From contig JBAZLK010000002.1 in NCBI GenBank assembly GCA_041650335.1, forward strand, positions 124,070-188,069: 64,000 nucleotides of DNA. Reading direction: 5' to 3'. The notes beneath the pieces are model-generated. The model saw only the letters and a program-made list of their open reading frames with translations. It did no database searches and had not been told where the DNA came from. Position 1 is the first letter of the stretch; each line of letters opens with the position of its first letter. Positions 5,291 through 64,000 of the stretch are shown here, in pieces. Made by a program: the position numbers and the translations under genes. The stretch is from Patescibacteria group bacterium (GTDB lineage: Bacteria; Patescibacteriota; Patescibacteriia; JAHIZJ01).

Positions 5291-5432
5291 AAGGAAAGTA
5301 GGGACATCTTAAGTAAAACGTTTCTGGAAGTATTTGTCAAACGGGCGGGCGTCGTTTCCGGCAGAGCCGGACCCGGCTTTGCCGGGCAGTTGGTAGAGTG
5401 CCTGCTTTCTTGGTCCTCGGCGGCAGTTGCCG

Positions 5433-5506
5433 GCGGGATTAGTACAGGGGTAGTATGCTTGCTTCCCAAGCAAGAGACGCGAGTTCGAGTCTCGTATCCC
5501 GCTCCA
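5433..5506 (+). tRNA. tRNA-Gly (anticodon CCC)
   Basis: GCGGGATTAGTACAGGGGTAGTATGCTTGCTTCCCAAGCAAGAGACGCGAGTTCGAGTCTCGTATCCCGCTCCA. Acceptor GCGGGAT/ATCCCGC, anticodon stem CTTGC/GCAAG with loop TTCCCAA, T-arm GCGAG-TTCGAGT-CTCGT, CCA encoded. Confidence 0.8.
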
Positions 5507-11313: not shown

Positions 11314-12928
11314 AATTGGTTGACTGTCCGTTACGCTGAAAAAGTCGCTTGGCTTTATCAAGCCATTGCCGCAAAGCGCTGATTTCTTCGCAGTGCAGCA
11401 CGTAGGCGATGATAATGTAGGCAATCACGCCGGCCACAAAGGCAATGCTCGTCTGCAGGGCGATACCCAGAAAGGTTTGCATGTTGACACCGGTGGCAAT
11501 AAAATATTTCATGAGCTGAACAATCGCGCCCATGGCGATCGTCGCCACGATAATTTTTAGGGTGGAACGCAGAATTCTTCGTTCATCGAGATCGCCGACA
11601 ACGACACGCAAGGCGATCAATAAGAGTAACGTGTTTACAACGCTCGAGATTGAAAACGCCAACGCCAATCCATAAATACCCCAGCGTTGGCTCAACCAAA
11701 TCCCGAGGCCGATATTCATCGCCATCGAAATCAAGCTGATGATCACCGGCGTCTTCGTGTTTTGAAAGGCATAAAACGAGCGGGTGAGCATCGGTGCCAG
11801 GCTTTGGGCGAAGAGGGATAACGAAAAAAATCCGAGCGTCTGGGCGGTCAGGATGGTATCGTTCCAGTCAAACGCGCCCGCACCCAAGATGATCCGGACA
11901 AATTGAGCGCGAAGCAACAGAATGCCCACCGAAACCGGAATGATGAGAAAAAGGATTCTTCGAAAAGTCTCCGAGAAATGGCGGACAAAGCCGTCGCGAT
12001 CATTTTCCGCCCAAGCCTTACTGAAAACCGGAAATGACGAAATAGCCAGTGAAATCCCAAATACGCCAATGGGGAAACTCTGAAGATTGTTGGCCAGATT
12101 GAAAACCGCTACGCTGCCTGTGCCCAGGTTTGAGGCCAGAACATTGATCACCACCTGGTTGATCTGAACAACGCCGAGGCTTAGCGCCCGCGGTATCATC
12201 AACCGGCCGATTTTTCTCACGCCGGCATGAGCGGTATCAAAAATCCATTTATAGACAAAACCGACGCGGCGCGCCGCCGGCCACTGAACAACCAAGTGAG
12301 CAAACGAACCGATCACAACGCCATAGGCGAGACCTTTCACGCCCCAGTGCGGCGCGAGCACCAATATGCCGAAAATGATTCCGAAATTATACATGATCGG
12401 CGCGAGCGAATACACAAAAAACCGCCGAAACGAATTTAAAATTCCGCTTAAAACATTGCTCACCCCGAAGAAAACGATACTTACCAGCATGATCCGCGTC
12501 AGTAGGGCAGTCGCCGCCTTTTTTTCCGGTGAAAAACCAGGCGCGATAATACCCATTAATTGCGGCGTAAACAGCCACATCAAACCGCCGAGAATAATGA
12601 GCGTGATGGCGATCAGATTCAGAATCGAGTTTGTCATCGGCCAGGCTTGCCGTTCCACCTCCGGTTTTGACTGATCACGATGCCAGTACTCAAGGAAAAC
12701 GGGAATGAACGAAGCGGAAAGCGCGCCGAGGACGAAAATGTTAAAGATAAAGTCAGGCAGCCGAAAAGCGGCATAATACACATCGAGCACCTCGCCGGCG
12801 CCAAACGTTGACGCCAAAAGCCGGTCTCGGATGAGCCCCACCAGCCGACTCAAAACCGAGGCGAACCCAACAATGATGGCGCCGCCGAGGATTGTCGTTT
12901 CCAGACGGTAGAGTATCTTTTTTAGCAT
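11306..12928 (-). CDS. murJ: lipid II flippase MurJ (MviN)
   Basis: 540 aa, about 14 TM. N-terminal SRLVGLIRDRLLASTFGAGEVLDVYYAAFRLPDFIFNIF is the MurJ signature. Overlaps the lepA start by 8 nt. Confidence 0.85.
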   Translation of the reverse strand: MLKKILYRLETTILGGAIIVGFASVLSRLVGLIRDRLLASTFGAGEVLDVYYAAFRLPDFIFNIFVLGALSASFIPVFLEYWHRDQSKPEVERQAWPMTNSILNLIAITLIILGGLMWLFTPQLMGIIAPGFSPEKKAATALLTRIMLVSIVFFGVSNVLSGILNSFRRFFVYSLAPIMYNFGIIFGILVLAPHWGVKGLAYGVVIGSFAHLVVQWPAARRVGFVYKWIFDTAHAGVRKIGRLMIPRALSLGVVQINQVVINVLASNLGTGSVAVFNLANNLQSFPIGVFGISLAISSFPVFSKAWAENDRDGFVRHFSETFRRILFLIIPVSVGILLLRAQFVRIILGAGAFDWNDTILTAQTLGFFSLSLFAQSLAPMLTRSFYAFQNTKTPVIISLISMAMNIGLGIWLSQRWGIYGLALAFSISSVVNTLLLLIALRVVVGDLDERRILRSTLKIIVATIAMGAIVQLMKYFIATGVNMQTFLGIALQTSIAFVAGVIAYIIIAYVLHCEEISALRQWLDKAKRLFQRNGQSTNYE

Positions 12929-12960
12929 AATATCCTTCCTATAGTACCATCAATATCGAC

Positions 12961-12993
12961 AAAAAACAATGGAAAAACCCGCTTCGCGCGGGT
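12961..12993 (-). terminator. rho-independent terminator upstream of murJ
   Basis: Minus sense: ACCCGCGCGAAGCGGGT followed by TTTTTCCATTGTTTTTT. Confidence 0.6.
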
Positions 12994-13198
12994 TGGTCGC
13001 AGACTCGCTCCTGCCGAGTTGAGAGAAGGAGGCGAATAACGAACGGCAAGACGAAAAATCCGAAATTTTGTGTTGCGACGCGCGCAACGAGGATTCTGTT
13101 TGCTGATGTTCGATGACTTCCCTCCCTCACTACCGGCAGGAGTAAATGTGCCACCGGAAGTGTGGATAAGCCATTGTTCGTAGTATATTATACAAAAT

Positions 13199-45800: not shown

Positions 45801-48572
45801 TTATTCTACCGGCAGAGTAAATATAAACGTGCTCCCCTTGCCCAAACCTTCGCTCTCGACCCAGATCTGTCCGCCGTGGGCGTCGACGATGCGCTTGGCA
45901 ATATAGAGACCGAGACCGGACCCGTCCGGCTGGACTTGGGCGATGCCCTCCCCGCGGACAAACTTCGTGAACAGCCGCTTGGCGTCATCCGGCGGGATAC
46001 CGCGGCCCGTGTCCTTCACGGAAACGCTGATATTGCCGTTGATCTTCTGAACCGAAACCGTGACGCTGCCCTGCGGTGTGTATTTTATCGCGTTATCGAC
46101 GAGATTCAAAATGACGTCTTTCAATTTATCCGAATCAACCATCAGGGCGGGCAGTTTTTTGGCCGGCTTTTTGTATTCCAGCTTGAGGCCTTTTTCCTCA
46201 GCCACCTTGATGATTTCGATCAATTCGGTCTGGATCAGTTCTTCGATTTGCGCCGGTTTCTTATCGAGTACGAATTTACCCGCCTCGATCTTCGTAATAT
46301 TGAGGAATAAATTTACCATCCGGACCATGCGCTTGCTCGCATCCAGCACTTGTTTCAAAATATTCAGTTTTTCTTCGTCAATCTTTCCGAAATCGCCGTC
46401 CACCAGCATGGACAGCCAGCCCTGGATGCCGGTCAGCGGGGTGCGCAATTGGTGCGAGGCGATGGAGATAAACTCGTTCTTCGCCTCGTCGAGCTGTTTC
46501 AAATGATCGTTCGCCTTGGCCAGCTCGGTATTCGTCAGCCGTAGCTCCTCGACCAACTTCAGATTCCTAGTGACAATACCCATCTGATCGGCCAGCGACT
46601 CCATCATCTGGATCTCGTCCTCAGATACTTCTTTCTTGGATTTTTGGATGACAAACACGATCGATCCGATGATCTCCTTTTCCGAGAAAATCGGCGCGGC
46701 CACGATCGTCTTCGCGCCCACGAGCTTTTGCATAGCATAGCAGATCGGCTTTGGAATCGGCGGGGACAGGAAATCAGATAGCGATTCGCTGATCTGGATA
46801 TTTCCCGTGCGGATTGCCTCCGTCGCCAGATCCTTATCCGCCATCGTGCCGCTGTATTGTTCGAGCTGTTTGGGCAGGAGTTTGACCGCGGCTTGAGTGA
46901 TTTTTGTCATCGTGATGGCCACCGGATGCGTTTTTTCACCTTCTCCGCGTAAAATAATAACCCCCCCGATGTACCCCAGCTCATTGGCGATGCCGTCAAC
47001 GATCGCCTGGGTAACCTTCTTGAAGTCGAGCGACCGAGTGATGATATTGCCGATACTCTGGAGAGCGTTCAAGTAGACATTCCGGTTCTTTAGCTCCACG
47101 TTGGCCATCTGAAGATCGGCCGTGGCGTGCTCGACCTCAACCTTCAGCTTTTCACTGAATGATTTTACCTCGTCATAGAGCCGCGACTTCTCGATCGCCG
47201 ACCCCATGAGCGGGCTCAAGACTTCGAGCAGTTTCAGGTCGTTTCCGCTATAGACATCGCCGGATCGCTTCTGGCCCAGCACATAGAGGCCAGTCACCTC
47301 GCCCTCGAGCATGATCGGCGCGATCACTGCCGCGCCCGTGGCTTTTACCTCAGCTAGTGATTTCTCGAGCTGTTTGCGCTCGCGTTCATCGGCCGTATCG
47401 GAGATTTTTCGCTCAAGCTCTTCGAGGACAACCACTTTTTCGGTTTTTTGAACGTATTTGGCGACCGAGCCATTCGCATCGACGCGCGTATTATTACCGT
47501 TACCGTTGTTATTTCTACGCTTGCTGTATGACTGTTTGTTTTTCGTGAGCAATAATATGTCCGCATATTTGATTTTCAGAATACTGGCGAGCTTCCACTC
47601 CACTGACGACAGCAGATCATCGAGCTCGATCTTCACACTGACCATTTCGGTCAGTATCTGGGTGGCTTCGGTATAGTCCACCTCGCCTTTGAAGAATATT
47701 GCATCGGTAATTTTTGCCAGTAAACGCTTCAACGGATCAAAACCGAAAACTATTACAAGCGAGACAAGGATAGTCGCGAGAAACCCCGACCCGCCAAGCT
47801 CTTGGATAAAAAGACCGGTCAGAAACGTAGCTGAAGTGAAAGCAAACGTAGTAAAAAGAATGAGAAAGAAATAGATAATGGAGCGAGATATAACCACCCT
47901 AATATCAAACAATCTGTGTTTGACGATTGCATAGGCGGTAATAATCGCATAAATGAAAACAAAATAATTACCAACAGGATAAATATTTAATCTAAAATCT
48001 AGTAAAAAATTTGTAGATCCACCAACAAATCCAATCAATGACGCGACAAACATGTATAATAACTGTTGTGATCTGAGACCAAGAGCTTTTTTATATTCAA
48101 TATATATATTTCTGATACTCCAAAAAACGACTGCAACAAAATATATAAGAAATGTTGGGTATATGCTTCCAGTTTTTACCGGCCAATAGCCAAAATATGT
48201 CCTGGGACTCACTTGCTCGATAAACAATTTAGAAAAAACGAGAATCGAAAATATTACCGAAATGACATACAAAAAAATAGTAATATACAAGTATTTCTTT
48301 TTTGTCCTGCCGGTTAATACAACGCTATAACGAAAAAATACGGCGGGTAATAACGCAGTACCAATATACAACAACCTTTGCCAAATCAATGCCTGATCAG
48401 AGTTATTAGCAATGACGGTACCGAATAAACCTATAGTCCATATTGAAGTTACACAACTGACAAGAAACCATATTTGATTTAATTCTTTCTTCCTATTTCC
48501 AAATAAAACAAACAGTCCTAGTGCAACAGTTAATATCGCGGTTAAAAGACAGGTATACGCAAAAGTGTTCAT
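45801..48572 (-). CDS. sensor histidine kinase with N-terminal 7TM sensor module and GAF domains
   Basis: 923 aa. The first ~300 aa are multi-TM. H-box FISIASHQLRTPLTGIQGWLSML, N/G boxes (NLVDNAIKYT, DTGRGI, GSGLGLYI). Confidence 0.8.
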   Translation of the reverse strand: MNTFAYTCLLTAILTVALGLFVLFGNRKKELNQIWFLVSCVTSIWTIGLFGTVIANNSDQALIWQRLLYIGTALLPAVFFRYSVVLTGRTKKKYLYITIFLYVISVIFSILVFSKLFIEQVSPRTYFGYWPVKTGSIYPTFLIYFVAVVFWSIRNIYIEYKKALGLRSQQLLYMFVASLIGFVGGSTNFLLDFRLNIYPVGNYFVFIYAIITAYAIVKHRLFDIRVVISRSIIYFFLILFTTFAFTSATFLTGLFIQELGGSGFLATILVSLVIVFGFDPLKRLLAKITDAIFFKGEVDYTEATQILTEMVSVKIELDDLLSSVEWKLASILKIKYADILLLTKNKQSYSKRRNNNGNGNNTRVDANGSVAKYVQKTEKVVVLEELERKISDTADERERKQLEKSLAEVKATGAAVIAPIMLEGEVTGLYVLGQKRSGDVYSGNDLKLLEVLSPLMGSAIEKSRLYDEVKSFSEKLKVEVEHATADLQMANVELKNRNVYLNALQSIGNIITRSLDFKKVTQAIVDGIANELGYIGGVIILRGEGEKTHPVAITMTKITQAAVKLLPKQLEQYSGTMADKDLATEAIRTGNIQISESLSDFLSPPIPKPICYAMQKLVGAKTIVAAPIFSEKEIIGSIVFVIQKSKKEVSEDEIQMMESLADQMGIVTRNLKLVEELRLTNTELAKANDHLKQLDEAKNEFISIASHQLRTPLTGIQGWLSMLVDGDFGKIDEEKLNILKQVLDASKRMVRMVNLFLNITKIEAGKFVLDKKPAQIEELIQTELIEIIKVAEEKGLKLEYKKPAKKLPALMVDSDKLKDVILNLVDNAIKYTPQGSVTVSVQKINGNISVSVKDTGRGIPPDDAKRLFTKFVRGEGIAQVQPDGSGLGLYIAKRIVDAHGGQIWVESEGLGKGSTFIFTLPVE

Positions 48573-49216
48573 TGTATTGTATTCTGTTTTTCCACTAAAT
48601 TGACAATCTTTTTGGCTATTTGTCGTTTTCCTTTAATAAAAATGATATTATTGGCATGGTCTAATATAAATGCCTCGTGAACCCCTCTAACTCTTTTATA
48701 TTCGTTTGCCACCATGAAATCGGCGCGTGACTCCGCCATACTTTTGGACGCGATCTGAATTAATTGTTTTGATGTTTTGTTTACTTCCAACTTGAACTTA
48801 ACAAGAATGGTACTGGGGGTAATTTTTTTAATATAATTTACTATTTTTTTTGTTGGCTTCAGTTTCAAAAATATCGTTTTCTTGCCACTTTTTATTTTCC
48901 CACTATATTTTTTTGATAACTGATAATCGGATATTGCGGCGGAATGAAATATTGCGTCGTATTTATTTTCTTTAATTTCTTTAATGAATATCCGAAACAA
49001 TTCATCATAATAGTGAAATTTTATTAATCTAACTTTAATAGATCTAAGTTTATGATCACAAACTCTTCCTGGTCCTAACATCAGTGTAACCTTGTGTCCT
49101 CTTCTGCTAGCGATTTTTGCTATTTCAAAACCAAGATTACCTGCAAAAACATTCGTAATTACTCTTACTTTATCGATGGGAACCCAAACTGGACCGGCGG
49201 TCACTAATACTCTCAT
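48569..49216 (-). CDS. coaB: phosphopantothenate--cysteine ligase-like (CoaB domain)
   Basis: MRVLVTAGPVWVPIDKVRVITNVFAGNLGFEIAKIASRRGHKVTL matches the CoaB pattern VLVTSGGT.EPID.VRFI.N.SSG. Confidence 0.55.
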   Translation of the reverse strand: MRVLVTAGPVWVPIDKVRVITNVFAGNLGFEIAKIASRRGHKVTLMLGPGRVCDHKLRSIKVRLIKFHYYDELFRIFIKEIKENKYDAIFHSAAISDYQLSKKYSGKIKSGKKTIFLKLKPTKKIVNYIKKITPSTILVKFKLEVNKTSKQLIQIASKSMAESRADFMVANEYKRVRGVHEAFILDHANNIIFIKGKRQIAKKIVNLVEKQNTIQ

Positions 49217-50012
49217 TTTTTACTATATAATTATTTTTTACTTTTTTATACCATTTCCATGGAGTCCTAAACAAATTGTATTTTACGTATAGTGATAAAT
49301 GATTTTGTTTAAACCATTTGATAAACTCTTTATCAATATCTTCTCTACTTCTTATTTGATGTCCCCTTTTCCTGAGAAAATCGATATAGATATTACCTAT
49401 TGGAAAGATAAAATGTTTAGTAATATATCTCGGTTTTTTCTCTAGTTGATAATCAATATTATCCAAAGGCTCACTCATGCTAATAATGTGCTTTTCATTT
49501 ATTGGATGCACTGCATCATGTTCCCCATCCCATATAATCAAATCTGTGAGATTATCAATATGTTTTGTCTTCAATGAAAGTTCTGTATCCGTTGATGGGT
49601 CGCATTTTATCCAGCGATTATCTATATATACAAAGCAAACTATATGCACCGATGAACTACTAATACTTTCCTTGATAAAAGAAGGAAGAATATGCCCAAA
49701 AGATTCCCCGCCAATTACCTTATATATACAATATCCGCTCGGTATACCTGCAGCTCTAAAAAGCGCAACAAGTAAATTTGTACTAGTGGTACACATGCCC
49801 GTCTGACTCTCCATAGTTTCAGAAGCTCTCTTACTCCATGCGCCAACCCTGTATTTAATATTATCCCTTACATATTCAAAAAGTGCTATCGCAAGATCCT
49901 TATCATTCTGATTGACCTTTTTATAACTTTTAACAAAATCTATAATATTGTGATTATCATAATCACAATATTTTGTAACAGCTAAATACTTTTGCTTATT
50001 TATTTTTTCCAT
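49170..50012 (-). CDS. transglutaminase-like cysteine protease superfamily protein
   Basis: Core GMCTTSTNLLVALFRAAGIPSGY (catalytic Cys), then His/Asp region (SFGHIL...VYIDNRWIKCDPS). Overlaps coaB by 47 nt and coaC by 13 nt. Confidence 0.55.
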   Translation of the reverse strand: MEKINKQKYLAVTKYCDYDNHNIIDFVKSYKKVNQNDKDLAIALFEYVRDNIKYRVGAWSKRASETMESQTGMCTTSTNLLVALFRAAGIPSGYCIYKVIGGESFGHILPSFIKESISSSSVHIVCFVYIDNRWIKCDPSTDTELSLKTKHIDNLTDLIIWDGEHDAVHPINEKHIISMSEPLDNIDYQLEKKPRYITKHFIFPIGNIYIDFLRKRGHQIRSREDIDKEFIKWFKQNHLSLYVKYNLFRTPWKWYKKVKNNYIVKNESISDRRSSLGSHR

Positions 50013-50578
50013 TGCTTTAATAATTTTTCGATGTTATTTTGAAGGACATCATTTCCAATTAGCGCTCCTTCACCCTCATAACCGCATGCTAATTTTCCTT
50101 TGATCGGTCCAACGATGCTATATTTATCCAAGTTGCCTATTTTAATATTTCTCAATTTGCTAATATTTGACTGGATTATTTCATTTTCCCACATATGACA
50201 ATTCATAGCGGGCGCAATAAGTACTGGCGTTTTTTTCGGGAGTGCGCACATTACTGTTGTAAGTAAATTATCAGCTATTCCACATGATAATTTACTTATT
50301 GTATTTGCAGTCGCCGGTGCTAATACAAAAATGTCGCACCAATCAGCTAAATGTATGTGCTCAACAACGGTTTTATCGTGCGTTTCAAAGGTATCTAAAT
50401 ATACTTGCGAATTAGACAATGTCTGTATAGTTACCAGTGAAATCAATTGCGTGGCAGCCGCCGACATAATAACTTTAACAGTTGCCCCTGAAGCCTTTAG
50501 TCTATTTATTAAACTACACATTCTATAAGCACCAATACATCCAGTAATTCCTAATAATATCTTTTTGTTCTTTAACAT
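50000..50578 (-). CDS. coaC: phosphopantothenoylcysteine decarboxylase-like flavoprotein (CoaC domain)
   Basis: KKILLGITGCIGAYRMCSLINRLKASGATVKVIMS... and PAMNCHMWEN match the HFCD flavoprotein family. Confidence 0.6.
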   Translation of the reverse strand: MLKNKKILLGITGCIGAYRMCSLINRLKASGATVKVIMSAAATQLISLVTIQTLSNSQVYLDTFETHDKTVVEHIHLADWCDIFVLAPATANTISKLSCGIADNLLTTVMCALPKKTPVLIAPAMNCHMWENEIIQSNISKLRNIKIGNLDKYSIVGPIKGKLACGYEGEGALIGNDVLQNNIEKLLKQWKK

Positions 50579-50640: not shown

Positions 50641-51324
50641 CTACTTCTTCAATACTATCACTGCAATCATAACCGCCACGACACCGGCAAATAGCGGAGA
50701 ATATGCCATGTTAATTGATAAATCAAAAAGGGGGAAGATGCGATCCATAACCACGCCAACTAAACCGCTAATACCAATTATTATAGTAACGGCGGTTACC
50801 TGTTTTTTTAGTTGCACCGAGACAATGTTTATTTTTTTTATTAACAAATATAGTGATAACAACAAATATATCAACGATACTATGAAGAGCGCCCAGAACG
50901 CATTACCTGGTTTAATATCGATAAATCCTTCATTTACATTAACATCATTAATGAAGCTTGGCTGTAATATTATTGCTGGCAAGACAATAAATATTGATCC
51001 AAATATTACCAATCGGCGAACAAGAGGATCCATATTTGTCGGCAACGGATAATACATTGCCAATGCAAGGAGACTTACGAAACTGGCCGTACCAGAGTAG
51101 AATGCTGCCCTGGCAATAATCAACTTTGACATTTCTGTATTCGAAGTCATGAGAAGTCCAACAAAGAAGGACATTAGTGAAAAACCAAAAAGCATAGCGC
51201 AGAGCGCATAGATAGACTGAGTTTTTTGATATCGAAAATAAATATACAATGCGAGAATCAATTCTAATATGGAAAGAGACCAAAGAATTATTGTATTTGC
51301 TTCAGTAATGATACTCATTTTCAT
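50641..51324 (-). CDS. hypothetical polytopic membrane protein
   Basis: 227 aa, about 6-7 TM, AT-rich. Confidence 0.45.
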   Translation of the reverse strand: MKMSIITEANTIILWSLSILELILALYIYFRYQKTQSIYALCAMLFGFSLMSFFVGLLMTSNTEMSKLIIARAAFYSGTASFVSLLALAMYYPLPTNMDPLVRRLVIFGSIFIVLPAIILQPSFINDVNVNEGFIDIKPGNAFWALFIVSLIYLLLSLYLLIKKINIVSVQLKKQVTAVTIIIGISGLVGVVMDRIFPLFDLSINMAYSPLFAGVVAVMIAVIVLKK

Positions 51325-52048: not shown

Positions 52049-53509
52049 TTAAACTTTTACCCCAATCCGCTCAAGCGCGTTTTTATAAAGTATCACATTT
52101 TCTAATGCATAGGCCGCCTCCTGCGCGACATTCTGTAAATATCTGACGTCTTCTGTTGTATACGGTTCGTTCGATGTCTTACTGCCAAGAAGAACAAGCG
52201 CAGAAAGTCCGTGGCGCGTAGCTAGCGGCAATACCGCTTCGGTTTTCAGATTGTCCATTTCCTTTTCGCACTGCTCGAGCCGTCGCTGTTCAAGACCGAA
52301 TGCTTCCTGAAATAGATACGGGATTTCTTCACGGATTAGCATTTTCATGGAATCTTTCAAAAAACTCGGTAATGCTTCTTCTGCGCGAATACTGATATTG
52401 CCGTCTAATGAGTCATATGTTCCCTGGCGCTTGTTTACTATTAAACAAGTTATTCGATTCACGTTCACAACCTTTAATATTTCACCCGATAGCTCTCGGC
52501 AAAACTCTTCCAAGTCCACTAAACCGATCACGCGCTGCCGAACATCTTCAATCATCTGTTTCATATTCGGCTGGCGCGAAAAAAACAAACGGTTAATTAT
52601 TCGTATCAACCATTTACGAAATGGGATAAAGGTTACGGCAATAACAAGCACTGAAGCAAAATTCACAAATGCACGGTTGAATGCGTACTTCTGGACTAAA
52701 TAATCATTCGCAAGCAGAACTAAATAACCATAGACGATTAGTAATAATATAAGAACCAGCGTATGGGCCGCGCCCTTTTTCATTACTATCCTTACGTCCA
52801 TAAAACGATACCGTAGTATGGCATACGCAATAAGCCACGTAAACACAGCTAAACCAATCAAACTTAGAGGATATAATTTATTGTAACCAAGCGATGGCAG
52901 TAGTAAATTAAATAGTAAAGAAAATGTCGCAACGCAAATAAACGCAAAGATAATATAACGTAGTTGAATCTTTGTAACTTTTGATGTAGTTGATTTGAAA
53001 ATATTGAATAATTTTTTCAATCCAAAAAATGCATATATTAATAAATAAATAATATATGCAGGATACAATTGACTAATACTCGGACGATAACCGTAATTTT
53101 CAATATATTCGACATCAGAGATGTTATACCTTGTCGGAACTATTGCTACAATGGCTATGGATGGTAAAAAAAGTAGCAAAATTTGCCACCACGAAAATGG
53201 CGTCTTTTTTTTATAGAGAGTATACGCAAAAAGTAAAAATAATGTCGGGGAAAACGCCGGTCCGAGAAAAGTCAGTCTCGCCCATAAAAGAGCGGCTTCT
53301 TTGCCACCAACAAGATCGGACATAATGTTCGCAAACAACCACACAGAGAGACTTAGCACTAACGATCCAAAGAAGATCAGATTTGGTCTTTTTTTGCTCT
53401 TAATAAATACGGTAATGGATATTACCAGGAGCGCAAAAAAACAAATTACTGAGGTAACTTCAATAATTTGGATCTCTAGACTATGATATATTCCAGGATT
53501 AATCTCCAT
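52049..53509 (-). CDS. membrane sensor with N-terminal 7TM module and C-terminal GAF-like domain (no kinase domain)
   Basis: The first ~300 aa are multi-TM and resemble the N-terminus of the 45801..48572 kinase. The C-terminus is GAF-like (ALVLLGSKTSNEPYTTEDVRYLQNVAQEAAYALENVILY). Confidence 0.5.
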   Translation of the reverse strand: MEINPGIYHSLEIQIIEVTSVICFFALLVISITVFIKSKKRPNLIFFGSLVLSLSVWLFANIMSDLVGGKEAALLWARLTFLGPAFSPTLFLLFAYTLYKKKTPFSWWQILLLFLPSIAIVAIVPTRYNISDVEYIENYGYRPSISQLYPAYIIYLLIYAFFGLKKLFNIFKSTTSKVTKIQLRYIIFAFICVATFSLLFNLLLPSLGYNKLYPLSLIGLAVFTWLIAYAILRYRFMDVRIVMKKGAAHTLVLILLLIVYGYLVLLANDYLVQKYAFNRAFVNFASVLVIAVTFIPFRKWLIRIINRLFFSRQPNMKQMIEDVRQRVIGLVDLEEFCRELSGEILKVVNVNRITCLIVNKRQGTYDSLDGNISIRAEEALPSFLKDSMKMLIREEIPYLFQEAFGLEQRRLEQCEKEMDNLKTEAVLPLATRHGLSALVLLGSKTSNEPYTTEDVRYLQNVAQEAAYALENVILYKNALERIGVKV

Positions 53510-54172: not shown

Positions 54173-54736
54173 TTAGATGCCATATATTGCCCTGATGCCG
54201 GAAATATCATCCGAATGCAACGTGCGCTTATATGTCTCACCGGGTGCCCCGCTTCCATACATTGTTTTCCAATAATCTCCGCCGCTGTACAGATCATTGA
54301 GCATAAGCCAGTGTCCAAATTCATGCGCCATGACATTTTCAACGTCATATTTGTTCGGGTCCCCGTTCACGTCCCAAGAAAAGCGCGAGTTTATGTATGT
54401 ATCACGATCAGTGATGCGATTATTGTTCCATCCTTCTCGCACATACGTTATGGCAAGTGCATGTGGGTCAGACAAATACTGGAGACGCACTTCATGCCCT
54501 TGCGAGCCAGCAATAAACCGATACTTTGCGCCCGCCTGATTCCACGATGACATAGCGTGGGATATGGCCGGTACCCAGGCGGGCAGGATACTACTGTGCA
54601 TGTAGACCGATACCCGGGTCGGATTGCCATAGTCCCAGTGATGGCCGGAATTGTAGTAGGCTTGGGCGTTAGGCGCACTAATGCCGGCCATAGCCGCAAC
54701 AAAGAACGCGACTAATGCTAAAAACTTTTTTCTCAT
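54173..54736 (-). CDS. secreted zinc metalloprotease (HExxH)
   Basis: Start at MRKKFLALVAFFVAAMAGISAPNAQA (signal peptide). Motif VMAHEFGHWLMLND. Confidence 0.55.
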   Translation of the reverse strand: MRKKFLALVAFFVAAMAGISAPNAQAYYNSGHHWDYGNPTRVSVYMHSSILPAWVPAISHAMSSWNQAGAKYRFIAGSQGHEVRLQYLSDPHALAITYVREGWNNNRITDRDTYINSRFSWDVNGDPNKYDVENVMAHEFGHWLMLNDLYSGGDYWKTMYGSGAPGETYKRTLHSDDISGIRAIYGI

Positions 54737-54806
54737 CTTGTACCCTTTTCCACCCGTCATATTAATTATAGCTATGTCAATGGATAATTGGAAATAAAGC
54801 AAAAAA

Positions 54807-54882
54807 CGAGCCCGAAAGCCCGTCTCTTTCTAACACTAGAATACTCTCTACGTATATTATGTCAACTACCTGTTATCCACCC
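54807..54882 (-). repeat. conserved promoter element, copy D (upstream of secreted metalloprotease gene)
   Basis: rc GGGTGGATAAcaggtagTTGACA-16 nt-TATTCT-agtgtt-AGAAAGAGACGGGCTTTCGGGCTCG. Confidence 0.65.
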
Positions 54883-55520
54883 GCCCCCGCAACTTGATAT
54901 AATGCTTCCAACTCTACTTTTGTCCACCGGATACCGTACACAGCTCGAAATATTCGTGGAAATATTTCGGGTGAATTTGTCTGGCCAAGCTTTCGCAGCA
55001 ACGTAAGCATTTTTTTCTCGCCGTATTTCCGGATCAGCGCGTTGACCCAGAAATACCCGACCGGATATGCCATGACAGAGAAGTTACCCATGGGTCTTGT
55101 TACTGAGAGCGCCAGCGCCAATGGCGGCGTGCGTTTTTTCTGACCAGCCAACCAGCAAGCCAAGCCTTCGTTCAGCCATTTCGGCACATTCCAACCCGCA
55201 ACACTGCGGATGTACAGATGCGCGTGTTCGTGGCGCAGGGTGGTCCAGAATTCAGATCGGCGCCTATGGTTTGACTCGCTGACGTATTTTTCCGGGCTCA
55301 GAATATAAATTACCCGTTCTCTCGTCCAGCCGACTGACCAATCCTCAGTTTTTCTTCCCCAAAGAGCGTCGATCTGACGTCGCGAGGTGAGAAGAACGAC
55401 CAACGGTTCAGAAAGCTTGTATCCGAAGAAACGGTCAAGTTCTTTCGTTTGCATTTTTATCTGGCGTCGCAGTTTCGGCAGTTGGCGAACCCGACTTATT
55501 TCCACACATAGGTTTTTCAT
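54873..55520 (-). CDS. hypothetical protein with HExxH motif (putative metal-dependent hydrolase)
   Basis: TTLRHEHAHLYIRS; 215 aa. Confidence 0.35.
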   Translation of the reverse strand: MKNLCVEISRVRQLPKLRRQIKMQTKELDRFFGYKLSEPLVVLLTSRRQIDALWGRKTEDWSVGWTRERVIYILSPEKYVSESNHRRRSEFWTTLRHEHAHLYIRSVAGWNVPKWLNEGLACWLAGQKKRTPPLALALSVTRPMGNFSVMAYPVGYFWVNALIRKYGEKKMLTLLRKLGQTNSPEIFPRIFRAVYGIRWTKVELEALYQVAGAGG

Positions 55521-55534: not shown

Positions 55535-56122
55535 CTATTTCTCAACCTTATGAGCGATCATTCTGACCACATGATGCTGATGGGGTTCTTCCTTGCCTGG
55601 GTGTCCCGGATCGTCAATCACCGCTTCGCGATAAAAATCAACATCAAAATCGGAAAACAGATCGCGTAGCTGCCCTTTTTGGAAATAACAGGCGTCCGGT
55701 CGTTTTTGATAGGACGGCTCATCAACCGTGAAACCAGATACAATGATATACCCGCCTGGATGGAGGGCGTTTTTTACTCGCTGGATTAAGTCGAGCGCTT
55801 TTGGTTTTTCTATAAACTGGAGGACATTGAAAAGCTGGATTATGGAGTATCGATCAGGCTCTATCTCGAAATCCTCTGCCCGACCCTGGATGATTTTGAT
55901 CGGCAGTTTGTTAAAGTCAGGTGTTTTTTTCATTTCAGCAATTTCGTCTGGCGACCTTTCCACCGCCACAACGCGCCAGCCGTTTTGCGCCATGAACAAA
56001 CTGTCACGCCCTTGACCGGCGCCAAAATCAAGGAAGGAATGTGCACGATCAGCGTTTTGCCAAATCCTCTGCAATAATTTGTTGGGCATACTGATTGGGT
56101 TTTGTGTAATCGACACGGGCAT
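55535..56122 (-). CDS. class I SAM-dependent methyltransferase (TehB-like)
   Basis: LDFGAGQGRDSLFMAQNGWRVVAVERSPDEI (motif I and post-I). Confidence 0.65.
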   Translation of the reverse strand: MPVSITQNPISMPNKLLQRIWQNADRAHSFLDFGAGQGRDSLFMAQNGWRVVAVERSPDEIAEMKKTPDFNKLPIKIIQGRAEDFEIEPDRYSIIQLFNVLQFIEKPKALDLIQRVKNALHPGGYIIVSGFTVDEPSYQKRPDACYFQKGQLRDLFSDFDVDFYREAVIDDPGHPGKEEPHQHHVVRMIAHKVEK

Positions 56123-56445: not shown

Positions 56446-56865
56446 TCATGATCTTAAATGTTTTATTACGGTTCTCTTGTATCCACTCTCCATCTTAAGC
56501 ATCCTTACTCCAGCTGCAGTCACCCAACGCCATTTGTCATGTTCCTCACTCAGATAGAATCGGCTCTTCGATATCCGGCATTCAAAAACCACAACGCAAA
56601 AATGATACCTGGCAATATCATGGAATTTCGTCATGATATTAAACACTGATATTGGTCGGCCAATTTCTACCCGGGTAATTCCAAGTTCCTCTTTTAATTC
56701 TCGGCACAGGACCGCCTGCGGCGTTTCTCCAAATTCCATCTTTCCTCCGGGCAATTCCCAGGAACCGCCGGGCGTATGTACAAATAATACTTTATTATCG
56801 CGTAGGATCAACGCTTTTATTGTAATGCGTAATCGCCGTTCCATTTTTGGATAGTAACCCTTCAT
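56446..56865 (-). CDS. NUDIX hydrolase
   Basis: Nudix box GGKMEFGETPQAVLCRELKEELGI. Confidence 0.6.
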   Translation of the reverse strand: MKGYYPKMERRLRITIKALILRDNKVLFVHTPGGSWELPGGKMEFGETPQAVLCRELKEELGITRVEIGRPISVFNIMTKFHDIARYHFCVVVFECRISKSRFYLSEEHDKWRWVTAAGVRMLKMESGYKRTVIKHLRS

Positions 56866-57437
56866 AACTTTTTATTATTCAATTTATCAATAAACATTGC
56901 GAATGTATTTTCTTTAAGAGAAATATGACGGCCGTACCATCGTTCCACTAATCCACTGAATTCTATTATTCGAGTAAACCCGGAATTTCGGTCGTGGTTT
57001 ATCTGCTTTCGATACCACGACTTACCTTCTGTCTCGCTGATATGAATAGCATTTAAACAACGGACAAAGTATTCCTCAAGATTGTCACGGAATGTTTGCC
57101 CTCGATAGTTATCGGGAAGTCCAATTTCACATTCCTGGACAAAATGACTGACCGACATTTTTGTCTTTATCAGTGAATGCAGGGCTTCGTGTCGCACGGT
57201 ATTCCAGGGGAAGCTATGATCTGGGTGGGGATGTAAACGAATAATATGTTTTACTCCGTCATGTGATACTCGACCGTTCCCCAAGGGCAGATGCTCGTCA
57301 ATTTTTATTTCCAAAATCAACGAACAATCATCTTCGTTCCACCGTAATAGGTCAACTGCCTCAAGGACGGTTGATCTGCACTTCTCCATAAACCCATCTA
57401 TTTTCGATAATTTTTTGGCTAGTTTAATATCGATCAT
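56862..57437 (-). CDS. hypothetical HExxH protein (putative metallopeptidase) downstream of the radical SAM gene
   Basis: RHEALHSLI motif; 191 aa; AT-rich compared with the flanking rSAM gene. Confidence 0.4.
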   Translation of the reverse strand: MIDIKLAKKLSKIDGFMEKCRSTVLEAVDLLRWNEDDCSLILEIKIDEHLPLGNGRVSHDGVKHIIRLHPHPDHSFPWNTVRHEALHSLIKTKMSVSHFVQECEIGLPDNYRGQTFRDNLEEYFVRCLNAIHISETEGKSWYRKQINHDRNSGFTRIIEFSGLVERWYGRHISLKENTFAMFIDKLNNKKL

Positions 57438-59018: not shown

Positions 59019-59178
59019 TTAGCTACCCTCCTCTCCGCCCATAGGAGTCAGGTTGATTAGCCAGAGGTTCCGGCATTCGGAATGTGGCAAAACCGCCAGA
59101 GACCGATGGGTCTTTTGTTGTAAAAGATCGATAACACAAAAAGAGCCGGTTTTTCTGCCTGCCTTCGGAAGGCAAGAA

Positions 59179-59247
59179 AGAAAGCCCGTCTCTTTCTGCC
59201 TGCATGATACACCATCTAGAGAACCGGTCAAGATCGTTTTATCCACT
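59179..59247 (-). repeat. conserved promoter element, copy E (upstream of the precursor peptide)
   Basis: rc GTGGATAAaacgatcTTGACC-16 nt-TATCAT-gcaggc-AGAAAGAGACGGGCTTTC. Confidence 0.65.
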
Positions 59248-59346
59248 CAGCTAGATATAAATTAGATAATTGCCTGTTCGTTTGAAATAAAAATGACCGA
59301 ACGGGAGGTCCGGTCAAGAAGTAGCTCGGTTGCCAGCAATGTACAT

Positions 59347-60513
59347 TTAGGGTGGGCCGATGATGGCGAGCTCCCGTTCCAGCTCGCAGTCAAAACTCCA
59401 GGGAGAGTAGGTCGAATGAACCAGGTTGTTCGTGGCAGAGATAGCGTACCGCCGGCGCGCTTCCTTCTTCCAGCAGAGCGCGCGATAGTATCCGCCCCGG
59501 CCGGCGACCAGCACCGCGAGCGATTCGCCGCGTGCCAGCAATGCGACCGCTTCTTCGTACCAGTCATCAGCGCGCGATGCCTGGTACCACGTCTGCGCTT
59601 CGGCCTGAGTAAACCGGTGCGGCCAGGTCCGGACGATGTTCAACCCGTACCGATTAAGCAGTTTGAGCAATTCGGCTTCAAGTCCCCGGCGGCGCGCTTC
59701 CGGCTTCAGCAGTATGAGCGAGCGCTCGATGCGGTCCGGCTGGAGCGAGCCTTTTGGGCACAGCGTCAGCCAGCGGTAATAGCCCGGTTCATTGATGAAC
59801 GTGCGGCTCAGCGTGAGATCGCCGGGCGTATTGATGTTGCAGCACAGGTCGTCGCCGACCAGGCCCAGGATCCGGAAGTTCCGCATTAGCAGCAGCCGAA
59901 CCAGGTAGTCCCAGCCGAGCGAATAGGCCTGAAACTGATAGTTCTGCCAGTTACGAAAATCCTCTACCCAGCCACCGCTCAACCGCTCGAGGCTGGATGT
60001 CCGGAACGCCCACAGCACCAGGAGCGTCGGTATCTCGTGCCCTGGCACTTCTTCAAGTTCACACACCCAGCCGTTTTCAACCCGGTACCGCCAGTAGATC
60101 CAGTCAGAGGTGATGAACGGCCGGCAGACCGTGGTGATGAGCACGGCGCCATCCGCCGAGGACTCCTGTTCCAGCGCCTGAAGCAAGCGGTCAGCGCTGG
60201 CTGGATGCCAGAGCGTATCCCCGTTCACTCCGACAATGATGTCAGGCTGATATTGCCGGGCGGCGTTGAAGAAACAGGTCGTCAGCGGTTCGACACACCC
60301 GGCCGCGACGTTGACGCGTCCGGCGGTATGCTCGATCAGCGCCTCCTTCCCGTCGTCGACACCCATTACGATCGAATTGAAACCGGTCGTCAGGCCAGCC
60401 TCGATTATCCGATCAATAATCGGCCGCCCCTCAACTTCAACCAGCGATTTCGGCCCGGCACATCCGAGTCGGCGTCCCTGGCCGCCGGCGGCGATGAAGA
60501 GTTGCGTTTTCAT
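59347..60513 (-). CDS. fusion protein: N-terminal sugar-phosphate nucleotidyltransferase-like domain plus C-terminal nucleoside-diphosphate-kinase-like domain
   Basis: N-terminus AAGGQGRRLGCAGPKSLV (NTP-transferase G-x-G-x-R-x-n-K). C-terminus RSLILLKPEARRRGLEAELLKLLNRYGLNIV ... NNLVHSTYS resembles the NDK motifs (IKPD..., N.IHGSDS). Confidence 0.5.
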   Translation of the reverse strand: MKTQLFIAAGGQGRRLGCAGPKSLVEVEGRPIIDRIIEAGLTTGFNSIVMGVDDGKEALIEHTAGRVNVAAGCVEPLTTCFFNAARQYQPDIIVGVNGDTLWHPASADRLLQALEQESSADGAVLITTVCRPFITSDWIYWRYRVENGWVCELEEVPGHEIPTLLVLWAFRTSSLERLSGGWVEDFRNWQNYQFQAYSLGWDYLVRLLLMRNFRILGLVGDDLCCNINTPGDLTLSRTFINEPGYYRWLTLCPKGSLQPDRIERSLILLKPEARRRGLEAELLKLLNRYGLNIVRTWPHRFTQAEAQTWYQASRADDWYEEAVALLARGESLAVLVAGRGGYYRALCWKKEARRRYAISATNNLVHSTYSPWSFDCELERELAIIGPP

Positions 60514-61478
60514 ACACCGATCTCCTTCTCATGCCAGCGCCAGAAAGGTTCTGAGACGCGGTAGCCGCCTTTGGCGAACGAAAGCCGCAGTTTGGCGAAC
60601 CATGGCCCATCTAGACTAATCCCGAGATCGACCAGCTGACCCCCGCTTTCCTGGGTATCGGCCCGGCCTTCAATGAGGTCAGCCGCCGCGGAACAGCCGT
60701 GGCGAGCCAGGTACTCCAGCACAAACAGGTAGTACTGCGGAACTTGCCGATGGCCCAAGAAACGATAGGCATCGATGAGACGCAGCTCGTGTTCGGACAG
60801 CGGGCGTTTCGCCCGGTAGCCGTCAAGAAAGTACTGGAGACCGTCGAAATAATGGCGGTAACTCCAGCCGCCGTCCGTGACTAACAGGATCATGAAGGAC
60901 AGCGAGGCGCCGATGTCATAGACCGGCCAGCATACGCCGGAGTGCTCCCAGTCATAGGTGATCATCGGCTCGGCACTGAACAAGTTCTGGATTGTGTAAT
61001 CGCCGTGGATATAGACCGGCGCCAGACCATTCAAAGCAAGCCGGGCAGCCGACATGGTAGCGGCGGCTGCAGCCAGGGCCCCTTCGGGCAGATTGCTGCG
61101 CCGCAAGACATCCGTCTGCAGATCCTGAAACCGGCGGTTAATGAGCGCCGCGGTCGGCTCGCCATCGCACGTAAGGCCATGGATGTCGGCCAGCGTAGAT
61201 CCAATCGCCTGGAACGCCGACGGCTGCGGATTGCCCCACAACACCTGGTCAACGCGCGGGGCATAGATGCGCTCCATCACTGTCCAGCCGCCCCAGCGCC
61301 CGATGCCAGACTTCAGCACCCGCGGCGTACAGATACCTCCGTTCCCGGCCAAGGTAAGACCGCGCATTTCCGCCGCGTGCCGTTCCGGCCACATCCCCTT
61401 TTTCGTGAAGGTCGTTTCCGTCTGCTCATACTCTTTGCGCATTCCACCCAGCTTCAAATAAGCGTCCATAACAAACAC
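60510..61478 (-). CDS. aminoglycoside-phosphotransferase/choline-kinase-like small-molecule kinase
   Basis: YIHGDYTIQNL (Brenner HGD..N catalytic loop) and DWEHSG (D-x-E). Confidence 0.6.
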   Translation of the reverse strand: MFVMDAYLKLGGMRKEYEQTETTFTKKGMWPERHAAEMRGLTLAGNGGICTPRVLKSGIGRWGGWTVMERIYAPRVDQVLWGNPQPSAFQAIGSTLADIHGLTCDGEPTAALINRRFQDLQTDVLRRSNLPEGALAAAAATMSAARLALNGLAPVYIHGDYTIQNLFSAEPMITYDWEHSGVCWPVYDIGASLSFMILLVTDGGWSYRHYFDGLQYFLDGYRAKRPLSEHELRLIDAYRFLGHRQVPQYYLFVLEYLARHGCSAAADLIEGRADTQESGGQLVDLGISLDGPWFAKLRLSFAKGGYRVSEPFWRWHEKEIGV

Positions 61479-61571
61479 CCCCTGCTCGCTGTCTGAAACA
61501 GCGCGTTGTCAAAGATCATCGGGCCGGGGCTCGCCGGAACCCTCCGATCAACCGTCTAGCAACCGTGTCAA

Positions 61572-62234
61572 CTAAGTAATATCCCCGGCTTGTGCCTCCA
61601 TCCTAATCTGACGGAGCAAATTGTCAAGCCTGGCATATCGCTTCTTAGCGATGGCTTTTATTATTGGAAAATAGAACTGGCGCAGGTAATTTTTCGCGCT
61701 AACCCGGGCTCCTTCGGTCACCCAATACTCGTACAGCCGGTCAAGCCCTTTTTTATCGTAATGGGCATAGGTGATGTGACGCCAAATCTGCAGACAACCG
61801 TAATTATCCAAACGATCCGCATCCTTGACCATTTTCGCCTCCACGCTGAGCGCCTTTTTCCCGTGTTGCTGGTCTATTATGGACTGGACTTTCTTTATCT
61901 TGTCCCGGCCCAGTCCTGACCGGCCGATATATTTTACCACCAGCCGTGACCCGATTTCTGCGTGCCGCCGGTCAGCGTCAGAGTCATAGCGCAGCTCGCC
62001 TTTCGCATTCAACGACTTTATTTTGCCAACATCTGAAAATAAGGCGGCTACAAGCAAAACATCCTTGTCGATGTTCATTTTTTTGAAAAATGGCAGAGTC
62101 AGGAATTTCTCGCAGTATCGCATAACGCGCACTCCGTGATCGTATCGAAATTCGTACCCGCCGCCCGCCTCGTACGTATTCCGGAAGATGGCGTGATACT
62201 TTTGCAACAAACCGGCCCTTAAATTTTTTTGCAT
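61572..62234 (-). CDS. HD-domain phosphohydrolase
   Basis: LVAALFSDVGK, RHAEIGS, KDADRLD match HD motifs. Confidence 0.55.
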   Translation of the reverse strand: MQKNLRAGLLQKYHAIFRNTYEAGGGYEFRYDHGVRVMRYCEKFLTLPFFKKMNIDKDVLLVAALFSDVGKIKSLNAKGELRYDSDADRRHAEIGSRLVVKYIGRSGLGRDKIKKVQSIIDQQHGKKALSVEAKMVKDADRLDNYGCLQIWRHITYAHYDKKGLDRLYEYWVTEGARVSAKNYLRQFYFPIIKAIAKKRYARLDNLLRQIRMEAQAGDIT

Positions 62235-63331
62235 AATTTTTTATATATTTGTAAAAACGGCTCGAGACAGCGCGGCCAATGGTAATACCGTTCAACAAAC
62301 TTCCGGCCGCGCACCGTCATTGTACTATAGCTCCCGTAATTTTGCATAATGCCATGTATTCGGTCAGCGTACGCCGTGATATCATCCTCAATTATACAGG
62401 CATCGCGTACCGACGGATGCAGTCCTCGTACGCTCACGCTCGTGGCCACCAGTGGTAGTCCGGACGCCAGATAGTCAAGCACTTTTAAACTTGTCCCGGA
62501 CGCTTCCAGAATCGGCGCCACGGCAATGTCAGAGGCGAGTAACTCACGGCTGAGGTTCTTCGTGCCTCCGAAAAATACCGTTCCCGGGCCGCTGTATTTA
62601 TTTCTCAACGCCTCGGACACCGGGCCCATGATATTGATGCAATATCGGCGATCAAGCTTTTTCAGCTTAGGCAGAACGATCGTGGCCAGACGCCGGATCG
62701 CGTTTTCATTCGGCGGATAATAACCATGGCCCAAAAAAGCGATCCGAAATCTCTTCCGCTTCCGTATCTTGAACTGGATCGCGTTCGCGTCAATTGCCCC
62801 GCGATAGACGGTGATAGCGTGCCGCGAGCTATTCAGGCCAGCCAGCTGGCGCCTGTCTCGATTCGACCGGCAGAGCGTGTGGTTGGCCACGGTTATGGCG
62901 CGCGCTTGCTGTTTTTTCATAAACCGGACCATTTGGCTGTTCCGGTCGAGGCCGCCATAGAGAGTATGGTCAACATTGATGGCTTCATAAATAATTTTCA
63001 AACCGTATTTTTTTAAGACTGGCCCGAGGGCATTTATTTCCTCGGCGTTGCACATGTGAAGGCAATCAATATCGAATGCCGAGCACGCATAGGCCAAAGC
63101 CCGGGCTTTGTCGGGACGCGCTGTCGCCGGCACAAAAATCGTGGTAAACGGCTGTTTTGAGTACAATTTAGGGTCATCCCAGCCGCGGTAATTTATAATC
63201 AAATAAGGACGCACGCGACCGGTAGCGGCGAGATATTTCATGAGGTTGTAAATAGAGTAGAAAACGCCGTTCCGGATCGGTAAAAACGACCCATCCACAT
63301 AAAAGCCTACGCGGTAAATTTTTTTATTCAT
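62219..63331 (-). CDS. GT4-like glycosyltransferase
   Basis: C-terminal EASGTSLKVLDYLASGLPLVAT. Confidence 0.65.
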   Translation of the reverse strand: MNKKIYRVGFYVDGSFLPIRNGVFYSIYNLMKYLAATGRVRPYLIINYRGWDDPKLYSKQPFTTIFVPATARPDKARALAYACSAFDIDCLHMCNAEEINALGPVLKKYGLKIIYEAINVDHTLYGGLDRNSQMVRFMKKQQARAITVANHTLCRSNRDRRQLAGLNSSRHAITVYRGAIDANAIQFKIRKRKRFRIAFLGHGYYPPNENAIRRLATIVLPKLKKLDRRYCINIMGPVSEALRNKYSGPGTVFFGGTKNLSRELLASDIAVAPILEASGTSLKVLDYLASGLPLVATSVSVRGLHPSVRDACIIEDDITAYADRIHGIMQNYGSYSTMTVRGRKFVERYYHWPRCLEPFLQIYKKLCKKI

Positions 63332-63996
63332 AGCTTGTTTCGGATCATGGCTTCAAGCGCTTCCATTTTCTCGGTGCCGGGCAGCGTTATTATTTCGGTT
63401 TGCGGCTCGAGTTTTGGAAATACCTCTACGTAATATTGGCGGAAGCGGCGCAAGAAATTTACATTCAGCCACATGTTCGGGCTGGTCCGCGCCGGCACGC
63501 GTTCTTTCCGTCGGCTAGAAACGTTTACAGAAAGGTCGATATAGAACACCCGCCACGGTTTGATTATCAATTTTTTTACCAGCGCTCGGCGGTACCAGCG
63601 CAGCGCCGTCTGATACATCGTCGCCGACTTCACCCGATCATAAGCCCAATAGAATGCCAGCGTGCTGGGATAATAACGGTCGAGCACAAATTCTTTCTTC
63701 GGCGAGCGCATGATTGCCCGAGTCTTCAGCTCTTCGCTCCGAAAATAATAAGCCTGGCCCATCGCCTGGTCATTGGCCGGCTCAGTCGGTAATATTTGCG
63801 GAACCCGACCCATGCGTTTGTTGCCGCGCGTTAATAAAATAGCCAGGCTTGTCTTTCCGGCGCCCGGCAGACCCTCGAGCGCGTAGAGTTTTTTATCAAA
63901 AACCGAGACCGTTCCAGAATTTGCCGCGACAAAGCCGTAGAGCGCGTCATTGGGCAAATGATATATTTTTTTCGGCTTAAAGCCTCGCCGCAGCAC
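63328..63996 (-). CDS. P-loop kinase (deoxynucleoside/thymidylate-kinase-like); 5' end may lie beyond window
   Basis: Walker A GLPGAGKTS; 222 aa. The listed first codon is GTG at the window edge. Confidence 0.5.
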   Translation of the reverse strand: MLRRGFKPKKIYHLPNDALYGFVAANSGTVSVFDKKLYALEGLPGAGKTSLAILLTRGNKRMGRVPQILPTEPANDQAMGQAYYFRSEELKTRAIMRSPKKEFVLDRYYPSTLAFYWAYDRVKSATMYQTALRWYRRALVKKLIIKPWRVFYIDLSVNVSSRRKERVPARTSPNMWLNVNFLRRFRQYYVEVFPKLEPQTEIITLPGTEKMEALEAMIRNKL

Positions 63997-64000
63997 CTCG

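Follow-up and report, generated by a model that had tools for sequence, protein, structure and literature searches.

A putatively mobile gene cassette that may run an activation-and-transfer pathway in Patescibacteria and other bacteria

Routes in which a kinase, a nucleotidyltransferase (NTase) and a glycosyltransferase act in succession are textbook biochemistry. In the AmgK/MurU system, an anomeric kinase for MurNAc (N-acetylmuramic acid) as well as GlcNAc (N-acetylglucosamine) works with a MurNAc-1-phosphate uridylyltransferase in peptidoglycan-sugar salvage, and the LicA/LicC pair belongs to the CDP-choline route. Kinases also act on peptides that are ribosomally synthesised and post-translationally modified (RiPPs). 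Here, the closest known systems include the Ser/Thr kinases LxmK (class V lanthipeptides) and TvaE (thioamitides), and in pseudomycoidin the kinase PsmK and the NTP-transferase-like protein PsmN phosphorylate a lasso peptide and subsequently attach hexose(s) to it (PMC6993621). We analysed a gene set at the end of a 64,000-nucleotide stretch (the window) of contig JBAZLK010000002.1, which is labelled as Patescibacteria. The set encodes a kinase, an NTase and a glycosyltransferase together with nucleotide enzymes, and it lies next to a cluster with a Cys-rich peptide and a radical S-adenosylmethionine (rSAM) enzyme. It differs from the textbook route in that the NTase is fused to a nucleoside diphosphate kinase (NDK), a dedicated nucleoside monophosphate (NMP) kinase is present in the operon and the whole unit moves between phyla. 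These features, i.e. the fusion, the dedicated NMP kinase and the mobility, are new; literature searches on the combination of domains, on fusions of NTase with NDK and on 'ACGX' returned nothing relevant and no description of such a version.

We propose that these genes form an autonomous, horizontally mobile cassette of five core genes, supplemented in some lineages by an extra HD gene, that runs an activation-and-transfer pathway. The probability that we assign to this reading is about 0.45, slightly below even odds. The product would probably be a nucleotide-activated building block that is attached to an acceptor. The core genes and domains in the window are:

63328-64000 (-), cut at the window end (open reading frame 63328-63996): P-loop NMP kinase similar to thymidylate kinase (TMK-like; Pfam Thymidylate_kin)
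62219-63331 (-): GT4-like glycosyltransferase of GT-B fold (Pfam Glyco_trans_1_4)
61572-62234 (-): HD-superfamily protein, YpgQ/YedJ-like group (Pfam HD)
60510-61469 (-; open reading frame 60510-61478): APH-fold small-molecule or peptide kinase of an isolated family (Pfam APH)
59764-60513 (-): NTase domain of the fusion, residues ~1-250 (Pfam NTP_transf_3)
59347-59730 (-): NDK domain of the fusion, residues ~262-388, with the stop codon (Pfam NDK)

An earlier note on this stretch had described five co-directional genes with these domains directly upstream of the promoter of a RiPP precursor. All parts of this description hold: the minus-strand open reading frames are present at these positions, the profile search places each of the five families above its Pfam gathering score, and the set is separated from the precursor by a 328-nt spacer that contains a terminator-like hairpin followed by a promoter-like site. 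Judged against the equivalog cut-off, none of the five proteins (0/5) has a match in NCBIfam. The genes are tightly packed, with start/stop overlaps of 4 nt (TMK/GT4), 16 nt (GT4/HD) and 4 nt (APH/NTase) and a single gap of ~100 nt between HD and APH; the NTase–NDK fusion is one protein of 388 aa (59347-60513, -). To read genes beyond the window edge, we used the source contig of the window (L001), which is of metagenomic origin and 368 kb long. There, the TMK-like gene encodes 240 aa (L001 9282-10004) and starts ~50 nt past position 64000, so that the version in the window is short by about 17 codons. The sixth gene has the same direction and is located just outside the window, 5' of the TMK-like gene; it encodes a canonical HD paralog of 222 aa. 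The gene set is thus truncated by the window end.

The adjacency of the five genes is conserved. A gene-neighbourhood check, in which co-occurrence was judged wherever the contig was long enough, revealed that about ten divergent lineages carry them as a block. This conservation rules out a chance adjacency of housekeeping genes. The closest relatives (L015-L017) have ~76% amino acid identity, and one of them, L016, carries the same six genes; at 40-55% identity, the five genes are found together in L003/L019, L005, L006-L012, L018 and L014/L020. Within the block, the sub-blocks [TMK-GT4-HD] and [APH-NTase] are invariant and their order is permuted between lineages. The extra HD gene is present only in the two Patescibacteria lineages. 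Hosts include Patescibacteria, a Gammaproteobacteria metagenome-assembled genome and an organism bearing TonB and a type IX secretion system (T9SS).

The catalytic motifs of the kinase, the NTase, the NDK and the TMK-like protein are conserved between lineages at 40-50% identity. The APH kinase scores 47 bits with Pfam APH. The NTase domain (NTP_transf_3, 36.2 bits) has the fold of sugar- or alcohol-phosphate NTases and the PK…/NGD motifs of X-phosphate nucleotidylyltransferases. The NDK domain (PF00334, 37.3 bits, above the gathering threshold) has the NDK fold and superposes on the Staphylococcus aureus NDK at 1.7 Å. When aligned to 3vvt and 3zto, it keeps the catalytic His (NxxH[GA]S), the KPD lysine and the nucleotide-binding Tyr, and its Kpn loop is ~10 residues shorter. 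The catalytic His is lost in P0010 and L023, and the whole NDK domain is absent in three lineages (L005, L014 and L020).

For the TMK-like protein, the match to Thymidylate_kin exceeds the domain threshold (33.2 bits versus a cut-off of 27, E 5.4e-8), and the family profile aligns to the Thermotoga maritima thymidylate kinase 3hjn over the DRY motif and the LID (E 8e-7). Invariant motifs across the relatives are the P-loop EGLPGxGKT, DRYYxSTLAFYWAYD and the LID R-K-x-R. The GT4 protein has a C-terminal Glyco_trans_1_4 domain (54.4 bits versus 27, E 2.1e-14) and was counted as a GT4-type GT-B enzyme with both domains despite a sub-threshold match of its N-terminus to Glyco_transf_4 (18.8 bits versus 28.5, E 1.7e-3). 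Its identity across all full cassettes is 43-73%, and the profile found no close solved structure when compared by sequence to the PDB. The HD protein is above the Pfam threshold (PF01966, 40.3 bits versus 22, E 4.3e-10), and its profile matches the HD hydrolases 3djb, 3b57, 2pq7, 5dqv and 3gw7. At residue ~67 of the alignment, where the HD dyad is located, the protein in the window lacks an intact His-Asp pair: the window and L016 have FSD (Ser-Asp), four other lineages (L003/L019/L005/L006) have FAD (Ala-Asp), and FHD is retained in L014/L020/L023 and in the upstream HD paralog. The second, canonical HD gene is found only in the lineages with the Ser dyad. For all five families, the profile searches against the PDB yielded only remote matches, for the APH kinase amicoumacin kinase at 6e-5.

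The domain identities, the catalytic motifs, the co-inheritance of the genes, the cassette boundaries and the occurrence of the cassette without the peptide cluster are observed; the reaction order and the nature of the substrate and the acceptor we infer. First, the APH-fold kinase would phosphorylate a hydroxyl substrate X, most likely a sugar. Second, the NTase domain, which is translationally coupled to the kinase, would join X-phosphate and a nucleoside triphosphate (NTP) to form the nucleoside diphosphate (NDP) derivative NDP-X. Third, the GT4 enzyme would move X onto the acceptor, thereby releasing NDP. Fourth, the fused NDK (NDP to NTP) and the TMK-like kinase (NMP to NDP) would restore the nucleotide, and the cassette would thus be independent of the host nucleotide pool. 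Fifth, the HD protein may hydrolyse a nucleotide or a phospho-intermediate; its dyad is degenerate here and the canonical paralog is located upstream. As an acceptor, we consider a cellular or envelope glycoconjugate more likely than the neighbouring peptide. Remoter relatives of the kinase (L021 and L022) are located in glycosyltransferase-rich clusters with phosphatases, which favours glycoconjugate chemistry.

The boundaries of the cassette are visible in the sequence. The features downstream of its last gene are:

59294-59316 (-): intrinsic-terminator-like hairpin with T-run, end of the cassette operon (consensus scan)
59204-59231 (-): sigma-70-like promoter TTGACC-16-TATCAT of the precursor/rSAM operon, outside the cassette (consensus scan, 10/12 matches)
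59130-59213 (-; L001 14119-14202): second copy of an 84-nt direct repeat, before the precursor gene (repeat search)

The terminator consists of a 9-bp stem followed by TTTTTATTT. L016 retains both the stem TGACCG…CGGTCA and the T-run, and the DNA homology between the window and L016 stops just after the terminator. Downstream in L016, an M23 peptidase gene and a pilin-like gene are present and neither a precursor nor rSAM genes are found. As the homology ends at the conserved terminator and L016 has no peptide or rSAM genes there, we conclude that the cassette is an autonomous unit and that its link to the neighbouring cluster for peptide modification is not obligate.

Direct repeats bracket the cassette in several hosts. 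The first copy of the 84-nt repeat is located upstream of the cassette and outside the window (L001 8299-8382, equivalent to ~64950-65033). The two copies are 92% identical, have a spacing of 5,820 nt and bracket six genes in L001. They share an identical 63-nt core and conserved -35 and -10 boxes, and the spacer between the boxes differs. Each copy holds the -10 box and a perfect 63-nt hairpin leader; the core, which folds as a long hairpin followed by a U-run, occurs once in the 64-kb window. A search of the spacer and leader against Rfam gave no credible match, only a spurious miRNA-like one. The repeat may act as a regulatory leader or attenuator common to both operons, or it may be the scar of a recombination event. 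In L016, a promoter-bearing repeat of ~95 nt with a different sequence is found at the same two positions (6512-6596 and 12226-12319). In L003, a 148-nt repeat (5291-5438 and 12919-13066) brackets a 7.6-kb segment that contains the cassette. The second copy in L003 consists of a 3'-terminal piece of a neighbouring gene, which suggests a Campbell-type or duplicative insertion.

The GC content of the cassette deviates from that of its flanks in opposite directions in different hosts. We also observed a difference between the sub-blocks: in every lineage, APH and NTase exceed TMK, GT4 and HD by 2-12 GC points, whatever the overall GC. The gap is about 8-10 points in L001, L003, L005 and L016; for instance, the values are 0.60-0.61 versus 0.49-0.52 in the window and 0.35 versus 0.24-0.30 in L003.

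The cassette is rare. A word-indexed search of 5.8 billion clusters yielded 13, 12 and 7 matches for homologues of the fusion, the kinase and the TMK-like protein, respectively. An exhaustive HMMER search of 1.84 billion proteins with the APH kinase profile detected 13 representatives with E≤1e-30, a number that rises to 18 with E≤1e-10; below these 18, a gap is followed by generic APH proteins. Among 185,579 species genomes there is one match, the uncultured gammaproteobacterial genome, and three more were found in JGI metagenomes. Plasmid, phage and IMG/VR collections contain no relatives, and no member stems from a cultured organism in the collections searched. No curated family in NCBIfam, PADLOC or PHROGs matches the cassette proteins. 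With PADLOC v2, none of the five proteins has a significant defence match; the TMK-like protein has only a marginal value of 0.0039 to the sub-threshold PDC-M51B. With PHROGs, the matches are to a thymidylate-kinase family for the TMK-like protein and to one family of unknown function for the fusion, and both are marginal and generic.

Some loci contain parts of the gene set. In L004 (10001-11197), the fusion gene occurs alone and the other four genes are absent; the island around it encodes ParA, DUF87, an integrase, a TIR-pentapeptide protein and a zeta-toxin-like kinase. In L013 (2830-5938), a GT4 relative (34% identity) and an NT5C-type 5'-nucleotidase are divergent to a fusion-like gene in which the NDK His is lost. 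The nucleotidase appears to stand in for the HD protein.

The earlier note had proposed that the genes could activate a phospho- or nucleotidyl-sugar and transfer it to a cell-surface polymer or conceivably to the modified peptide. In the general form of a phospho- or nucleotidyl substrate, this proposal is partly supported, as it fits the domain set and its strict co-conservation. The pathway proposed here has to be weighed against several observations. The nearest structural neighbours of the APH kinase do not favour sugars: LxmK ranks first, MtnK second, NahK 19th and LicA 23rd. The loss of the dyad His in most lineages clouds the part played by the HD protein. Furthermore, of about six informative contexts, three have rSAM/SPASM genes close to the cassette. 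A variant operon, finally, has two rSAM enzymes and neither GT4 nor TMK in the available sequence (L023 578-6271 and L024). Its gene order is B12-binding rSAM, SPASM rSAM, HD, APH, NTase with a degenerate NDK, in which Phe replaces the catalytic His, and NUDIX; the identities are 45% for HD, 37% for APH and 33% for the fusion-like NTase. This variant indicates that the kinase and the NTase may act directly on an rSAM product.

The strongest alternative is that the cassette is a dedicated RiPP tailoring unit that acts on the neighbouring Cys-rich, rSAM-crosslinked peptide. Two routes can be envisaged. Either the APH kinase would phosphorylate a Ser or Thr of the peptide (its C-terminus is …ICSSD) and the NTase and GT4 would add a phospho-nucleotidyl or phospho-glycosyl decoration, or the cassette would supply an NDP-sugar that GT4 sets on the peptide. 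The context offers several arguments for such a link. The rSAM enzyme in the window is a PapB-like SPASM maturase beside the Cys-rich peptide and adjoins the cassette. In L003, an ACGX-system rSAM/SPASM protein (TIGR04340, 425 bits, above the cut-off) and a 61-aa Cys-rich peptide are located 3.7 kb from the cassette, and the methyltransferase adjacent to that rSAM gene is 46% identical to a methyltransferase in the window (55535-56122). In L023, the rSAM genes are part of the same overlapping operon as the cassette relatives, and there is a NUDIX gene after the window cluster as well as after the L024 variant. The first structural rank of the RiPP kinase LxmK and the precedent of pseudomycoidin, where a kinase and an NTP-transferase-like protein act on a RiPP (PMC6993621), point in the same direction. 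Lastly, both operons in the window region are preceded by the identical 63-nt leader hairpin and similar -35/-10 boxes.

The last of these arguments loses its specificity by comparison to L016, where the same kind of promoter-bearing flanking repeat is present without any RiPP. We therefore do not regard the shared leader as specific evidence of RiPP co-regulation and gave it less weight once the L016 repeat had been found. The genetic organisation also speaks against a RiPP function. A terminator and a separate promoter between the cassette and the peptide operon make them two transcription units, and in L001 and L003 the RiPP genes are located outside the repeat-bounded segment. The closest relative, L016, has the cassette without peptide or rSAM genes downstream, and the available L005 and L006 sequence contains no RiPP genes either. 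The earlier note had named, as the outcome that would speak against its proposal, a set that occurs without the rSAM cluster and follows a known pathway; these three loci show the first part, but no known pathway was matched. We also compared the three rSAM proteins near different cassettes and found that they are not orthologous. The window kinase falls short of the LxmK model, a HopA1-type lyase is missing, and characterised RiPP glycosyltransferases are mostly GT2 (PMC11912497). From the arguments on both sides, we consider a dedicated RiPP tailoring function unlikely, though closest to the activation-and-transfer pathway among the alternatives. A broader version is slightly less probable still: a portable tailoring module that would turn rSAM-crosslinked Cys-rich ribosomal peptides, or a different product of an rSAM enzyme, into conjugates of the phospho-nucleotidyl or phospho-glycosyl type and, with its own NMP→NDP→NTP regeneration, would be suited to metabolically minimal hosts such as Patescibacteria.

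A nucleotide-centred function is improbable. Here, the cassette would make or process a modified nucleotide or nucleoside, e.g. a (d)NMP that carries a sugar or another modification and is phosphorylated back to the triphosphate; HD and NUDIX proteins would give the monophosphate, from which the TMK-like protein and NDK would rebuild the triphosphate. Three or four of the six or seven genes encode nucleotide enzymes (TMK-like, NDK, the YpgQ-like HD and the extra HD), a NUDIX gene is located nearby, and in L013 the 5'-nucleotidase takes the place of HD by a related GT4 and fusion-like protein. However, a base-modifying enzyme (ThyA-like or similar) is lacking, the NTase has the motifs and fold of an X-phosphate nucleotidylyltransferase, phage and PHROG relatives are missing except for generic TMK, and the NDK domain is dispensable in the three lineages that lack it.

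An anti-phage defence or conflict system on mobile islands is very unlikely: the L006 cassette adjoins a PLD-like nuclease and an XRE-type helix-turn-helix gene, the lone L004 fusion resides in its ParA/DUF87/integrase/TIR-pentapeptide/zeta-toxin-like island, and flanking repeats and anomalous GC indicate mobility, but none of the five proteins is significant in PADLOC, the plasmid, phage and IMG/VR collections lack the cassette and no effector-like domain is encoded. Salvage of 5-deoxyribose or methylthioribose was dropped, as the kinase outgroups resemble MtnK, LxmK or Bud32 only far below the cut-offs.

Further genes in the window deserve mention. After the rSAM gene, a 191-aa open reading frame (56862-57437, -) matches no family and has an HExxH motif (VRHEALHSL). 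Two small metalloprotease-like genes follow at 54873-55520 (-) and 54173-54802 (-), with Peptidase_MA_2 with HEHAH and M10-like features. These three are candidate leader peptidases of the peptide cluster. At 48569-50578 (-), genes for a Flavoprotein (CoaC/EpiD-like), a transglutaminase-core and a DFP (CoaB-like) protein are located in a region of 32-34% GC; they could represent a CoaBC in separate parts or have a function of the peptide-decarboxylase type. Three HisKA_7TM proteins are encoded near them (45801-48572, 50641-51324 and 52049-53509). At 41529-44270 (-), a 913-aa protein combines an M23 peptidase with a C-terminal FlgD_ig / Por_Secre_tail-like (T9SS sorting) region. Its Por_Secre_tail score is just under the Pfam cut-off, and a T9SS feature is unexpected on a contig labelled as Patescibacteria.

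If the cassette supplies its own nucleotide pool, as proposed for the activation-and-transfer pathway, it shows how metabolically reduced bacteria can run a pathway that needs activated donors. If the neighbouring peptide is decorated, this would constitute a new class of RiPP modification and a new type of biosynthetic module with its own cofactor supply.

When comparing the cassette to the known systems, we find similarities in the logic of the pathway rather than membership in a described family. For the RiPP kinases, the likeness of LxmK is structural only: its model (NF038156) is not matched at E≤0.01 and the neighbourhood contains no HopA1-like lyase. The analogy to pseudomycoidin is one of function alone, since PsmK is of the HPr-kinase type and PsmN is similar to aminoglycoside 2''-nucleotidyltransferases, folds that are unlike the APH kinase and the GT-A NTase of the cassette. 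The kinase/NTase pair works like LicA/LicC; however, the window kinase is not matched by the Pfam Choline_kinase model, and the loci L001, L003, L005 and L006 contain GT4 in the cassette instead of the LicB transporter and the LicD transferase. Compared to the housekeeping enzymes, both the NDK domain and the TMK-like protein retain the folds and the catalytic residues. Unlike housekeeping NDK, the cassette domain is fused to an NTase and its Kpn loop is shortened. Unlike housekeeping thymidylate kinase, the TMK-like protein is extended at its N-terminus by a conserved stretch of ~45 residues (PQWLKEVLxRGFKPxKIYH) and scores far under the dTMP-kinase equivalog cut-off (TIGR00041, 36.6 bits versus 83.25). 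Lastly, the kinase/NTase pair works like AmgK/MurU. In structure, the NTase domain is as close to many other proteins as to MurU, and at the sequence level the pair was not placed in this system, in a comparison made without an AmgK sequence or model. To the AmgK/MurU scheme, the cassette adds a GT4 glycosyltransferase, a TMK-like kinase, an HD protein and a fused NDK.

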